The notes under the pieces were generated by a model, which had not been told where the DNA came from, ran no database searches, and worked only from the letters and a program-made list of their open reading frames with translations. This document shows, piece by piece, positions 61,494 to 63,176 of a DNA stretch of 64,000 nucleotides (the stretch's first letter is position 1; each line of letters begins with the position of its first letter). The stretch comes from Candidatus Peregrinibacteria bacterium (GTDB taxonomy: Bacteria; Patescibacteriota; Gracilibacteria; UBA1369), in the NCBI GenBank assembly GCA_963708185.1, contig OY970195.1, positions 512,001 to 576,000 of the forward strand, in the 5' to 3' direction. The position numbers and the translations under genes were made by a program.

Positions 61494-61516
61494 AAAAAAA
61501 AGAACGCCGAAGCGTT
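61494..61516 (-). terminator. Terminator ending the Cys-rich lipoprotein transcript
   Basis: Minus strand AACGC-TTCG-GCGTT-CTTTTTTTT. Confidence 0.65.
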
Positions 61517-61586
61517 TGAACTGAGCGCACGGCGCGAAGGCGTAAGCGTGTGGCTTTGCCACCGCTGGAGCGCGTTTAAAAAGAGA

Positions 61587-61600
61587 AAAACTCGCAGAAG
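61587..61600. repeat. Trailer arm of a 14-bp perfect inverted repeat (partner 63076..63089)
   Basis: AAAACTCGCAGAAG is the reverse complement of CTTCTGCGAGTTTT at 63076..63089. Confidence 0.9.
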
Positions 61601-61834
61601 TGTAAATCCCGGTCCGAAGAGGAGGAGGACGACCGCCGGTTTGAAAGGGGGGTCGGGATCACATGGATCCTGCAGTACCGCGTCGAGCGATACCGTTCCT
61701 CCGTCCTCTATCGGACGTGGGAAAGGTTATTCCCCCGCCGCTCTATGAGAGCGGCGGGGTACTGTTGTTGTTAATGGGTGAATGCTGCTTCAAGTCCGAC
61801 GGAATCGATCCGACGGACGAGCAGCGGTTGTTCC

Positions 61835-62860
61835 TCACTGCACGACGGCTGCGCACGCGATCTGAGACTGGCTGTCTCCGACCGCCTCGTTGTCGATCAA
61901 CGAGTTGTTGTTGGCCGTACCGCGATCGATGAACTCGGACGAGCAGGACCCGGGGAGGCAGTTGCGGAGGTCCGCAGCCGCGTCCTGGAGGCCCTGCAAC
62001 CCAGCCACGTAGCTGAGGTTGTCCGGGTTCTGCCCGTGGTTCGCGGCCAACACGCTCTTCAGCGGGTTGTACCACTCGCACGGGTGATCGCCCGAGCAGG
62101 TGAGGACGTTGTTCGCACCGTACAGGACGGCGCAAACCACGGTCGTCCCGTCAGACGAGCTGACGATGACGGTCTGGCCGGGGGTGAACGAGCCGTCCGT
62201 GGTGAGCGAGGCGTCGACCCAGCCGAGCGTGCTGCTCGACAGGGACGGCTTCCACGTCACGTCCGTGCCACCCGAGCTGTTCGGGACGCAGGTCCCGCTC
62301 GAGCAGTAGTAGCCGCTCGAGCAGGCCGGGGTGCAGCTTCCGCTGCCGTTGGGAACGCACACGCCGTTTTCGCACGTGGTGCCGGATCCGCAGCTGTTGT
62401 TGCAGTTGCCGGAGCCGGAGACGCACTGCCCGTTCGAGCAGTAGGTTCCCGACCCGCAGCTTCCGCCGCAGGTGTCGCTGCCGGACCCGTTGCCGCCGGG
62501 TACGCAGTACCCGTTGTTGCAGATCGTTCCCGTTCCGCAGGTCACGGAACAGGAGCCGGTCGCCGGGCGGCAGGTGGCGGGAGACGAACTGCTGTCGCAG
62601 TACGTGCCCCCATCGCACATGTCGTTGCACGGATCGTTGCCGCTGAACTGGCACTTGTCGGTGAGCGTGTTGCAGACGGCGCCGTCGTGGCAAATGCCGT
62701 CGCATGCCGTGTTGCTTCCGCCGCCCGTACCGCTGCACGCGGGATCGCCGTTCAAACAATACGGTTGGTCGTTGGACGACCCGCCGCAGCCGACGGCCGC
62801 GAGCGCGGTGACGAGGGTGACGAAGATGGCGACACTGAGCTTCAGGTTGGTCTTGGTCAT
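61835..62860 (-). CDS. GC-rich Cys-rich repeat lipoprotein (CxxxC-x-x-G-x-x-C-x-x-G-x-C repeats + unknown C-terminal domain)
   Basis: Start ATG 62860 with GGAG 9 nt upstream; lipobox AVG-C; about six Cys repeats; sample lines 68-70% GC. Confidence 0.8.
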   Translation of the reverse strand: MTKTNLKLSVAIFVTLVTALAAVGCGGSSNDQPYCLNGDPACSGTGGGSNTACDGICHDGAVCNTLTDKCQFSGNDPCNDMCDGGTYCDSSSSPATCRPATGSCSVTCGTGTICNNGYCVPGGNGSGSDTCGGSCGSGTYCSNGQCVSGSGNCNNSCGSGTTCENGVCVPNGSGSCTPACSSGYYCSSGTCVPNSSGGTDVTWKPSLSSSTLGWVDASLTTDGSFTPGQTVIVSSSDGTTVVCAVLYGANNVLTCSGDHPCEWYNPLKSVLAANHGQNPDNLSYVAGLQGLQDAAADLRNCLPGSCSSEFIDRGTANNNSLIDNEAVGDSQSQIACAAVVQ

Positions 62861-63075
62861 GACTTGTTTCTCCAAACTGGGCTGAGGGCTTTGGGCCCCC
62901 CGAGGAATTTTGGGCTGTAGGGCCCTGGGTAGCACCACCATGGTGCGCCCCCGGTCCCTACTTCCTCGAAAGTTAGGGCCCGAATCCGACTGCTTTGCTG
63001 GCTGCGTCTATCTTCCACAAACGCAAAAACAAACAGGTTCGGACCCTGACTTTCTTGTTGAATAACCATTAAAAT

Positions 63076-63140
63076 CTTCTGCGAGTTTTCAAAGAACTGT
63101 GCTGATGCACCGCTTGCGAAAAGACGCAAAAATACATCAG
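63076..63140 (-). promoter_or_regulatory. boxB-like hairpin + boxA antitermination motif + leader arm of inverted repeat
   Basis: Minus strand CTGATG..CATCAG hairpin (63102..63140), then GTTCTTTGAAAACT (63084..63097) running into AAAACTCGCAGAAG. Confidence 0.65.
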
Positions 63141-63147
63141 GTCACGA

Positions 63148-63176
63148 ATGATACTATATTTTTGCTGTTTTGTCAA
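63148..63176 (-). promoter_or_regulatory. Sigma70 promoter
   Basis: Minus strand TTGACA-17 nt-TATCAT. Confidence 0.8.

Follow-up and report, generated by a model that had tools for sequence, protein, structure and literature searches.

Protein-coding transcription units with the syntax of the organism's own rRNA precursors in a Candidatus Peregrinibacteria genome

Gene A, on the minus strand of a 64,000-nt stretch of a Candidatus Peregrinibacteria genome (the window), and the neighbouring two-gene unit D-C, which lies upstream and beyond the window, are transcription units with the syntax of the organism's own pre-rRNAs. We propose, with a probability of about 0.55, that rRNA-style, Nus-dependent transcription and a 5′-3′ clamp, possibly trimmed by RNase III, yield structured, long-lived mRNAs for cysteine-rich surface proteins. 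The parts of this arrangement are known singly, as boxA elements in front of a few other genes, and as a few mRNAs that pair their UTRs. Here, they are combined around protein-coding genes, and no description of such a unit was found in the literature searched.

Layout of the two units

The promoter of unit 1 is of the sigma-70 type (TTGACA-17-TATCAT, 63176-63148), matches 11 of 12 consensus positions, and is kept as TATTGACAAAA...TAGTATCAT in all four congeneric genomes compared. Judging from its position, transcription probably starts near 63141. A 5′-terminal hairpin (63140-63102), present in the minimum free energy (MFE) fold, occupies a boxB-like position immediately 5′ of the boxA-like element GTTCTTTGAAAACT (63097-63084), which begins 45 nt past the presumed start and 4 nt past the hairpin, and whose core, CTTTGAAAA, is unchanged in all eight unit leaders. 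The 3′ half of boxA is overlapped by the leader strand of the first leader-trailer helix (LT1), GAAAACTCGCAGAAG (63090-63076). Within this strand, the perfect arm AAAACTCGCAGAAG (63089-63076) has its exact complement at 61600-61587 (14 nt, 100%), and one G-U pair extends the pairing to 15 bp, the trailer strand being CTTCTGCGAGTTTTT (61600-61586), as identified by inverted-repeat match and in the MFE fold. The same two approaches revealed a second long-range helix (LT2), formed by GGTTATTC (63067-63060) and GAATAACC (61732-61725). A preliminary description of this locus had suggested another nested pair, GGTCCGAA (61611-61618) with TTCGGACC (63038-63045), which the MFE fold does not contain: each of its two strands pairs locally, and LT2 is the alternative.

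Between the long-range strands, the structured 5′ UTR (63054-62866) consists of a long hairpin, GGGTCCGAA...TTCGGGCCC, and a conserved domain, CGAGGAAGTAGGG...CCCTAC...TCCTCG, which is followed by the hairpin GGGGGC/GCCCTC. The Shine-Dalgarno sequence GGAG (62873-62870) lies 9 nt upstream of the ATG of gene A (62860-61835, 341 aa, from the open reading frame list), and AAGGAG, AGGAG or GGAAGGAA is found at the equivalent position in the orthologs. The structured 3′ UTR of ~235 nt (61834-61601) contains three hairpin domains, including GGAGGA...TCCTCCTCC. An intrinsic terminator, AACGCTTCGGCGTT with a T run (61516-61494, hairpin 61516-61503), completes the unit, and the order of trailer arm, hairpin, and T run is common to all four genomes. 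The promoter, hairpin, boxA, arms, GGAG, reading frame, UTR, and terminator of the preliminary description were all found on the minus strand where it had placed them.

Whether the genome contains further units of boxA and inverted repeat had also been raised, and one (unit 2) was found just upstream, adjoining unit 1 (G000:C1:576427-580802, G000 being the present genome). Its promoter, TTGACA...TATAAT, is followed by a long hairpin and then by GGATCTTTGAAAATCC; a perfect 16-nt arm pair, different from that of unit 1, surrounds genes D and C, and a terminator lies beyond. The leader of unit 2 holds a conserved small ORF.

Protein A is a lipoprotein precursor with the lipobox AAVGC, cysteine-rich CxxxCGxGTxC repeats, and a conserved C-terminal domain of ~140 aa; it matched no Pfam or NCBIfam family, and no PDB fold at E <= 0.001. 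Both A and C are predicted to be secreted, very cysteine-rich repeat proteins. The C-terminal half of the protein D model resembles the 8-stranded barrels OmpX, Ail, OmpA, and OmpW (TM 0.6-0.69 normalised to the target, E down to 1.7e-6), with a mean pLDDT of only 63.8. Just 4-5 relatives of the unit proteins were detected among 5.8 billion proteins, and by this measure the proteins are lineage-specific.

Conservation and covariation of the long-range helices

Taken by itself, the 14-nt repeat of unit 1 is not significant. The genome (1,437,033 bp) holds 161 perfect inverted repeats of at least 14 nt at 300-12,000 nt spacing, and the word TCTTTGAAAA occurs 19 times, which is the control rate (22 for its reverse). 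On these counts, gene A could be an ordinary gene in which both the inverted repeat and the boxA-like word arose by chance. However, the layout recurs in the second unit, and compensatory changes accompany the conservation of both units across four genomes, which refutes this reading and leaves it a probability close to nil. The signal beyond chance thus resides in the combination of elements and in the pairing kept in four genomes, not in the repeat alone: only two of the 161 repeats begin inside a TCTTTGAAAA, and these belong to units 1 and 2, neighbours on one strand, with a promoter before and a terminator after each. A degenerate genome-wide scan, which placed unit 2 at the 99th percentile of the null and unit 1 outside the top 15, did not tell the units apart from noise.

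Units 1 and 2 are syntenic in four congeneric genomes (G000, G002, G003, and G004), where they are flanked by the same housekeeping genes although the A proteins are only 42-66% identical. These four related genomes, which are kin and not independent, make up the whole comparative set; no match to gene A was found in G001, a genome of the same genus that is 90% complete and in 220 contigs. In all four, the long-range stem envisaged by the preliminary description was recovered: LT1 is present in the MFE fold of the entire 1.6-1.8-kb transcript with a pair probability of 0.64-1.0, the detail of such folds being unreliable for RNAs of 1.6 kb. In unit 1, 12 of the 15 LT1 pairs are invariant and 96.7% of cells are paired. 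This helix, of only 15 bp, is invariant and so gives no covariation of its own.

Covariation was found in the other long-range helices. The arms of unit 2 pair in leader-trailer co-folds of all four genomes, reading AATCCGG.../...CCGGATT in G000, AATTCAG.../...CTGAATT in G002 and G003, and ATTTGG.../...CCGAAT in G004; two positions are altered on both sides, and the lineage-specific extensions at the ends remain complementary. Likewise, LT2 of unit 1 is built in each genome from a complementary pair of its own (GGTTATTC/GAATAACC, TGAAAAGTTATT/AATAACTTTTCG, TTGAATG+TTATTC/GAATAA+CATTCAA, and TTAACAGTT/AACTGTTAA). Complementary strands that flank the cargo and covary, as in a pre-rRNA, are therefore provided by LT1 of unit 2 and LT2 of unit 1. 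The preliminary description had staked its case on homologous loci, and there the arms and boxA are conserved and the long-range helices carry compensatory changes.

The local helices behave similarly. The 5′ hairpin helix (16 pairs, 98.4% of cells paired) shows one-sided changes at 5 pairs and a two-sided change at 1 pair across the four genomes; the 5′ UTR helices of unit 1 contain pairs altered on both sides, and its 3′ UTR helices contain 17. When all UTR helices were considered, 81.3% of cells were paired, compared to 40-46% with the partners slid, and 29 two-sided pair changes were counted, compared to 7-13. On four of the five measures, the observed value was reached by none of 500 shuffles.

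Composition and structure of the coding regions

Gene A has a GC content of 0.66. The GC3 values of A, D, and C (0.89, 0.86, and 0.72) exceed the genome mean of 0.58 (sd 0.08, maximum 0.80), that of gene A by 3.8 sd, and the high GC3 of the unit genes is kept in G002-G004. AAG is used in the unit in place of the genome-preferred AAA. Within the helix, the UTRs are 46-59% GC, compared to 35-43% just upstream of it. A GC-rich island is bracketed almost exactly by the 14-nt repeats. A motif of the Shine-Dalgarno type was found at only 19 of 581 well-defined starts in the genome. The preliminary description had called the GC content and the Shine-Dalgarno sequence atypical, and both are truly unusual for this genome.

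An island so bracketed, with this GC3 and with AAG supplanting AAA, might be a horizontally acquired cassette or a non-autonomous mobile element, the repeats being terminal inverted repeats and the GC content that of a high-GC donor. Such an origin is very improbable, however. The unit occupies the same locus in four species despite the divergence of protein A, with high GC3 in all of them, and its proteins have no relatives outside the lineage. The arm 14-mer occurs nowhere in the genome beyond its two arms, the neighbouring unit has other arms, the flanks (TTCTTTG and TCTCTTT) differ and show no target-site duplication, and no transposase was found. Moreover, the arms are internal to the transcript, downstream of the promoter and ahead of the terminator; covariation of the kind expected of RNA helices is seen in LT2 and in the unit 2 arms; and a pattern derived from the 5′ UTR gave 0 matches in viral contigs. 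A transposon or MITE with terminal inverted repeats is largely refuted by the differing flanks, the restriction of the 14-mer to the arms, and the four-genome synteny.

The coding regions themselves are unusually structured. The native MFE of gene A is -508.7, compared to -453.8 +/- 9.1 for 40 synonymous shuffles, and the corresponding z values are -6.0 for A and -10.7 for D in G000, and -3.1 and -6.7 in G002, whereas eight control genes gave -1.69 to +1.24. Per nucleotide, the MFE is about -0.5 in the unit genes, -0.28 to -0.34 in the controls, and -0.35 in 16S rRNA. The coding regions are apparently under selection for RNA structure, and the GC-richness, which accompanies the structure excess, can be attributed to this selection. 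A natural control is provided by gene B (minus strand, 63333-64000 and on beyond the window; 317 aa in total), since it is an unpackaged paralog of A with ordinary composition (GC3 0.53, synonymous-shuffle z -0.57), situated between the two units and outside any leader-trailer helix. This GC3 contrast recurs in G002-G004. Strong structure in a coding region could also impede translation rather than aid it.

The preliminary description had speculated that the RNA is cut out in a closed or circular form that resists nucleases, and is then passed from an epibiont to a high-GC host and translated there. Codon usage and a Shine-Dalgarno sequence unlike the rest of the genome would fit this idea, as would an RNA whose predicted fold seems built for durability, and an outer-membrane-type barrel modelled for D in a 99%-complete genome in which no Omp85/BamA was found. 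The Shine-Dalgarno site and the GC-richness have nearer explanations, however. The 3′ end of the genome's own 16S rRNA carries CCTCC, an anti-Shine-Dalgarno sequence, and any gene behind a 215-nt leader needs a Shine-Dalgarno site, which accounts for that of the unit; the GC-richness follows from selection for RNA structure, and is hardly foreign in a unit that is syntenic, with high GC3, in four congeners and whose few protein relatives are confined to the lineage. The signal peptides and lipoboxes are consistent with export by the cell that makes the proteins, no host is known, and nothing points to an export route, a ligase, or a circular junction. Delivery to a host is thus scarcely credible, and the circular RNA is without support.

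Likeness to rRNA precursors and a proposed mechanism

Both boxA and the leader-trailer helix belong to the standard account of rRNA synthesis, and the comparison with the genome's own leaders upheld the pre-rRNA analogy of the preliminary description. The 16S leader has a promoter, a hairpin, and then the boxA TGTTCTTTAACATCC, the 3′ part of which opens a 27-nt leader-trailer helix (27-30 nt in G002 and G003). The 23S leader has a separate promoter, a hairpin, and the boxA TTTGTTCTTTAACAATTGGGCCTC, which pairs with the trailer GAGGCCCTTGTTAAAA. Location of boxA inside the 5′ strand of the leader-trailer helix is, therefore, common to the rRNAs and the mRNA units of the genus. As in an rrn-type leader, boxA of the units comes soon after the promoter, with the start deduced from promoter position, and is preceded by a hairpin. 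The sequence of a strong promoter, a hairpin, boxA, and a leader strand complementary to a trailer strand past the cargo is shared with bacterial pre-rRNA leaders in general, whose helices and their importance are described in PMC10250234 and PMC11404451. The units depart from this in helix length (15-18 bp and a second helix, versus 27-30 bp for 16S) and in what they enclose, namely one or two genes that code for proteins and have Shine-Dalgarno sites. Because the helix surrounds protein-coding A, or D and C, and no Rfam family was matched in the unit region, 5′ UTR included, the unit is not a pre-rRNA, but would work like one.

The boxA of unit 1 contains GTTCTTTGAAA, which matches 10 of 11 positions of the pattern GYTCTTTAANA given in PMC5725501. 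In B. subtilis, rrn operons likewise open with a small hairpin followed by boxA, and the consensus AUGAUCUUUGAAA binds NusB (PMC13753749). The core of this consensus, GATCTTTGAAA, is present in G000 (unit 2), G003, and G004 (unit 1 in both), and unit 1 of G002 reads CCTTTGAAAA; the GAAAA form thus agrees with the Gram-positive type of boxA that had been recognised earlier. The genome's own rrn boxA, TGTTCTTTAACA, is different, ending in AACA (...TTTAACA) where the units end in GAAAA (...TTTGAAAA), and the helix, not NusB, could be what keeps the unit boxA conserved.

Components of the machinery for rRNA-type transcription and processing are encoded in the genome. NusB scores 129.7 bits, above the cut-off, and its gene adjoins rnc, encoding RNase III (252 bits); RNase Y and RNase J are also encoded. 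Rho was not found in the genome (best score 48 bits versus a cut-off of 509), so the classical anti-Rho role is inapplicable.

From these elements, we infer Nus binding, antitermination, cleavage, and the stability and expression level of the units. NusB-S10 would bind boxA on the nascent RNA and convert RNA polymerase into an rrn-type antitermination complex, which could copy the GC-rich, hairpin-dense RNA without a trailing ribosome and without halting at hairpins. The complex would hold the leader by the RNA exit until the trailer appears 1.5 or 4.4 kb further on, whereupon the leader-trailer helices would form (LT1 of 15-18 bp and, in unit 1, also LT2 of 8-13 bp). Protection against 3′ exonucleases, RNase J, and RNase Y would come from the heavily folded UTRs and coding region and from the clamped ends, whether these are trimmed by RNase III or not, and translation would begin internally at the Shine-Dalgarno site, a signal that most genes of the genome do not use. 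The outcome would be a durable mRNA for abundant cysteine-rich surface or attachment proteins. A further step, in which the rRNA-maturation route has been co-opted for 'armoured' messages that are excised by way of the helix, double-stranded at their ends, perhaps ligated, and outlive transcription for dormancy or transfer to an attached cell, is improbable. RNase III trimming in the proposed mechanism is made less certain by the usual preference of the bacterial enzyme for some two turns of helix, LT1 and LT2 being interrupted.

The helix might instead serve as a regulatory 5′-3′ UTR device, or as an RNase III site that limits or times expression, and not as a stabiliser, TCTTTGAAAA being conserved only for its part in the helix, or because something else binds it, with no Nus antitermination involved. 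This reading is possible, if doubtful. Pairing of mRNA ends governs translation or decay and affects RNase action in S. aureus icaR and B. subtilis hbs (PMC3868564, PMC5737220), and translation of suhB and lambda N can be repressed by Nus factors that act at boxA by way of an RNA loop (PMC5725501). The unit boxA is unlike the rrn boxA, no Rho was found to antiterminate against, and the small ORF of the unit 2 leader could be an attenuation-type sensor. On the other hand, the leader arm lies ~200-215 nt upstream of the Shine-Dalgarno sequence and leaves it unoccluded, the layout mirrors that of rRNA element for element, down to the 5′ hairpin, and near-consensus promoters with structure selection over the whole coding region fit a constitutive, abundant, durable RNA better than a switch.

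The known systems closest to a regulatory device differ from the units as well. In the icaR account of PMC3868564, the 3′ UTR pairs with the Shine-Dalgarno region and blocks translation, whereas the unit 1 trailer pairs at 63090-63076; control of the icaR type was rejected, the partner of the trailer arm being ~200 nt upstream of the Shine-Dalgarno sequence at 62873. As far as described, icaR and hbs are also without a boxA, an rRNA-like leader, or a GC-rich, structure-selected coding region. A NusB/S10 site 5′ in a non-rRNA transcript is shared with E. coli suhB and a C. koseri ParE-like toxin gene (PMC5725501), and CRISPR arrays and suhB are mentioned as boxA-bearing in PMC13753749. As far as described, these cases lack a trailer partner and an enclosing helix, and they act together with Rho or in opposition to it, a factor not found in the present genome; in those of Baniulyte et al. 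(PMC5725501), boxA lies <50 nt from the start codon and represses translation, unlike in the units. The lambda N leader (nutL boxA-boxB) has its boxA ~200 nt 5′ of the Shine-Dalgarno sequence, a structured leader, and modulation by RNase III (PMC5725501), but it requires the phage N protein, and RNase III acts there on a hairpin within the leader and not on a helix with the 3′ UTR.

If the clamped, Nus-dependent mRNA is real, durable mRNAs can be made by recruiting the antitermination and chaperone machinery of rRNA synthesis, and Nus factors have a role in a bacterium without Rho. It would account for how a slow-growing, ribosome-poor CPR cell sustains the output of its main surface or attachment proteins, and would amount to a design principle for stable bacterial messages, with boxA, a long-range complement, and excess coding-sequence structure as the search signature. 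Cysteine-rich extracellular proteins that vary among strains, and possibly serve attachment to other cells, were reported for Ca. Peribacter riflensis (PMC4736985), and resemble the secreted cysteine-rich repeat proteins A and C. The accessible text of that paper is silent on the RNA context of such proteins, and the Peribacteria genomes have a GC content of 58.5%, compared to 49.8% here.

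Two transcription units with leader-trailer helices

The genome that holds the window (G000) is a single contig of 1,437,033 bp with 49.8% GC, in which the window occupies C1:512001-576000. Every element that the preliminary description had assigned to the transcription unit of gene A (unit 1) was found on the minus strand of the window. The promoter, TTGACA-17-TATCAT (63176-63148), matches 11 of 12 consensus positions and is followed by a hairpin (63140-63102), the boxA-like element GTTCTTTGAAAACT (63097-63084), and the leader arm AAAACTCGCAGAAG (63089-63076), whose exact complement lies at 61600-61587. 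A structured leader of 215 nt, with the Shine-Dalgarno sequence GGAG at 62873, precedes the 341-aa open reading frame of gene A (62860-61835), and a structured 3′ UTR of 235 nt and a terminator composed of a hairpin and a T-run (61516-61494) complete the unit.

A second unit was found directly upstream on the same strand, past the end of the window (locus L002, G000:C1:572001-584000). Its promoter, TTGACA...TATAAT, is followed by a hairpin with 20-bp arms and by the boxA GGATCTTTGAAAATCC, which overlaps a 16-nt leader arm, AATCCGGTTCATGAAA. The perfect complement of this arm, TTTCATGAACCGGATT, is located 4,360 nt downstream; the two genes D (382 aa) and C (782 aa) lie ahead of it, and a terminator follows. 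The layouts of the two units are identical, whereas their arm sequences differ. Gene B, a paralog of A, lies between the units and outside any leader-trailer helix. Rfam searches at gathering scores identified two tRNAs and no other family in the window, and no match at E ≤ 1 was obtained across the two units.

The leader of unit 2 is about 700 nt long and contains a small reading frame of 24-27 codons (L002:8540-8460, minus strand; G000:C1 about 580460-580540), preceded by a strong Shine-Dalgarno site, GAGGAAAGGA, and conserved as M-x-R-F-x-K-x-R...R-L-x-P...M-Q-P-R-K. It is present in G000 and in two other genomes of the genus (G003 and G004), is cleanly deleted in a third (G002), and may encode a leader peptide. 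Several hairpins in the 220-250-nt spacer between D and C (L002:4865-5104, minus strand), namely GCGGATTGAACATCTGC, CGGTCGGCGCAAAG, and GATGACGATCG, are kept in each of the four genomes and suggest that unit 2 contains additional RNA-level signals. The word TTTTGTAAT is found again immediately before several genes or units, among them gene B and both units (window 63225-63300; homologous positions in the loci L020-L022), and could represent a -10 region shared by promoters of this lineage.

Conservation, covariation, and folding

Perfect inverted repeats of at least 14 nt, spaced by 300-12,000 nt, occur 161 times in G000, and the boxA word TCTTTGAAAA occurs 19 times (8 intergenic), compared with 22 copies of a reversed control. 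The inverted repeat of unit 1 alone is not beyond chance, and the decisive facts come from its surroundings. Protein A was matched in 4 of 41 genomes including G000, that is, in three of the four other genomes of the genus and in none of 36 from other genera; no match was found in the remaining congener, G001 (90% complete, 220 contigs). The locus is syntenic in G002, G003, and G004 (L19, RNase HII, a minus-strand gene, D, C, (B), A, pfkB), with gene B at this place in G000 and G002 only, and a mobile element is accordingly a reading to which we give very little probability. The promoters, hairpins, boxA elements, arms, UTR structures, and terminators are kept across the four genomes, in which the A proteins are merely 42-66% identical.

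Comparison of the four genomes revealed that the arms of unit 2 covary (AATCCGGTTCATGAAA/TTTCATGAACCGGATT in G000, AATTCAGTTCATGAAATC/GGTTTCATGAACTGAATT in G002, ATTTGGTTCATGAAATG/CATTTCATGAACCGAAT in G004, and ATTCAGTTCATGAAAG/CTTTCATGAACTGAAT in G003), and they pair in leader-trailer co-folds of all four. The arms of unit 1 have a core that is invariant in the four genomes. When the unit 1 transcript of each genome, 1.6-1.8 kb in length, was folded in full, the proposed long-range stem was recovered in the minimum free energy (MFE) structure in every case, with pair probabilities of 0.64-1.0. The folds also contained a second long-range helix, the sequence of which differs in every genome while complementarity is kept (GGTTATTC/GAATAACC; TGAAAAGTTATT/AATAACTTTTCG; TTGAATG+TTATTC/GAATAA+CATTCAA; TTAACAGTT/AACTGTTAA). 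The nested pair suggested earlier, GGTCCGAA/TTCGGACC, was absent from the MFE fold, each strand folding locally. On the alignment of these four related sequences, with the UTR structure taken from one of them (G000), 81.3% of cells pair, compared with 40-46% when the partners are slid, and 29 pairs are changed on both sides, compared with 7-13; the observed value was reached by none of 500 shuffles on four of five measures. Since wider homolog searches gave no further units, the covariation rests on these four genomes. With arms that covary and structures that are kept, pure chance appears highly improbable as the origin of the arrangement.

Likeness to rRNA and reshaping of the coding sequences

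The pre-rRNA-like character claimed for unit 1 was borne out by comparison with the rrn leaders of the same genome, as the 16S and 23S genes each show a promoter, hairpin, boxA, and leader-trailer helix. The 16S gene (C1:372254-373755) has the promoter TTGACT-17-TAAAAT, the hairpin ATGAACG...TGTTCAT, and the boxA TGTTCTTTAACATCC; its leader stretch TCTTTAACATCCAGGATGTAGTAGAGA forms a 27-nt pairing, G-U counted, with a trailer located 85 nt beyond the 16S 3′ end, and similar pairings of 27-30 nt were found in G002 and G003. A separate promoter, hairpin, and boxA, TTTGTTCTTTAACAATTGGGCCTC, serve the 23S gene about 4 kb downstream, and the trailer GAGGCCCTTGTTAAAA pairs with this boxA. Beyond the 16S trailer lie a small zinc-ribbon-like reading frame and two tRNA genes (G000:C1:372254-381062). 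In the rrn operons of B. subtilis, as described in PMC13753749, the boxA follows a small 5′ hairpin and binds NusB, and its consensus, AUGAUCUUUGAAA, equals the GAAAA form of the unit motif. This form also agrees at 10 of 11 positions with GYTCTTTAANA, the pattern as it appears in Baniulyte et al. (PMC5725501).

The packaged genes stand out in third-position GC content (GC3), with values of 0.89 for A, 0.86 for D, and 0.72 for C, compared with 0.53 for the unpackaged paralog B and a genome mean of 0.58 (sd 0.08, maximum 0.80; 1,200 crudely called ORFs). The contrast between packaged and unpackaged genes is repeated in G002-G004. Given the divergence of the proteins, the trace of a one-off foreign origin would have decayed; high GC3 is therefore a bias under maintenance, and one specific to the units. 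The GC content of UTRs within the helices likewise exceeds that of the stretch immediately before the leader arm. When synonymous codons were shuffled with protein and codon counts unchanged, the native coding sequences of A and D proved much more stable than their shuffles (z = -6.0 for A in G000, 40 shuffles; with 24 shuffles each, -10.7 for D in G000, and -3.1 for A and -6.7 for D in G002). Eight controls, comprising B, pfkB, and six ordinary 0.9-1.3-kb genes from the highest-GC3 list, gave z values of -1.69 to +1.24. Per nucleotide, the MFE of packaged genes is close to -0.5 kcal/mol, whereas controls have -0.28 to -0.34 and 16S has -0.35.

The Shine-Dalgarno sites had also been taken as a foreign sign. 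They are indeed atypical: GGAG, GAGG, or AGGA occurs at -20 to -4 in 19 of 581 well-defined ATG starts of G000 (3%), and upstream regions in this genome contain little G and show a T/A-rich signal at -16 to -9, a pattern which suggests that most mRNAs are leaderless or have short leaders. Nevertheless, A, C, and D have long leaders, with clear sites kept in orthologs, and the 16S 3′ end carries CCTCC, so that the sites are explained by the long leader. Delivery of the mRNA to a high-GC host, with which the foreign traits had been connected, is hardly credible.

The unit boxA would load NusB-S10, and the modified polymerase would transcribe the hairpin-rich RNA uncoupled from ribosomes and would not terminate; the rrn complex hinders intrinsic termination as well as Rho, as summarised in PMC13753749. 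The leader might be kept held until the trailer emerges, as in the loop model discussed in PMC5725501, after which the two helices would clamp the RNA ends. The folded and clamped RNA, with or without RNase III trimming, could then withstand RNase J, RNase Y, and exonucleases. In G000, nusB and rnc (RNase III) are same-strand neighbours separated by about 110 nt (C1:666818-667975, minus strand), an arrangement that hints at a connection between these two activities. The genome encodes two RNase Y-like genes and RNase J; RNase E/G was not found, and no Rho exceeded the cut-off (best 48 bits vs 509). We put this reading, a nuclease-resistant mRNA made by boxA/NusB-S10 transcription and clamped ends, at slightly better than even (about 0.55). 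Its main rival, which we consider less likely, accepts the helix as real and treats it as a regulatory 5′-3′ interaction without Nus action. UTR-UTR pairing, boxA before non-rRNA genes, and leader-trailer helices are each known. The literature searched gave no union of the three around protein-coding genes that mirrors the rRNA of the same cell and goes together with coding sequences reshaped at the RNA level.

Cargo proteins and searches for further units

CxxxCGxGTxC repeats are shared by proteins A, B, and C, all of which are precursors of lipoproteins or of secreted proteins. Among 5.8 billion proteins, A has five relatives and D four (itself included). Pfam and NCBIfam gave no family for A, B, or D, and for C only a sub-threshold MopE metal-binding motif. 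The model of D (L002:7137-8285, minus strand; modest mean pLDDT of 63.8) predicts an N-terminal beta-sandwich and, in the C-terminal half, an 8-stranded outer-membrane-type beta-barrel that matches OmpX, Ail, OmpA, and OmpW; no Omp85/BamA was found in G000. The model of A has a mean pLDDT of 62.9 (73-94 in the C-terminal domain) and gave no PDB match at E ≤ 0.001. For Peribacteria, PMC4736985 describes Cys-rich extracellular proteins that may serve to attach the cell to others.

A scan of genome contigs with the leader 17-mer gave 69 loci, about the chance expectation for 596 Gb, of which only three (L043, L044, and L061) are titled Peribacteria, Gracilibacteria, or Peregrinibacteria. The 5′ UTR pattern matched no viral contig and four metagenomic contigs, all of which proved on inspection to be unrelated coding sequence. 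TCTTTGAAAA occurs at the control rate in all 31 family genomes, so the word alone cannot find units. Of the 624 sites of G000 covered by a degenerate scan for boxA plus stem, the 16S helix alone stood clearly above the null distribution. A candidate unit at C1:596262 has its trailer within coding sequence and was discarded for that reason. Genes in the remaining GC-rich islands of G000 have ordinary GC3 (0.53-0.73). TCTTTGAAAA has six more intergenic copies, two of which read GATCTTTGAAAA (C1:965067, 406485, and 1403704 on the minus strand; 1431171, 670892, and 328878 on the plus strand). These copies lack an obvious leader-trailer partner and could be boxA sites of other transcripts, or simply chance. 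Long inverted repeats at G000:C1:721430-728839 (78 and 221 nt) and 92657-95091 (30 nt) probably mark duplicated or mobile DNA.
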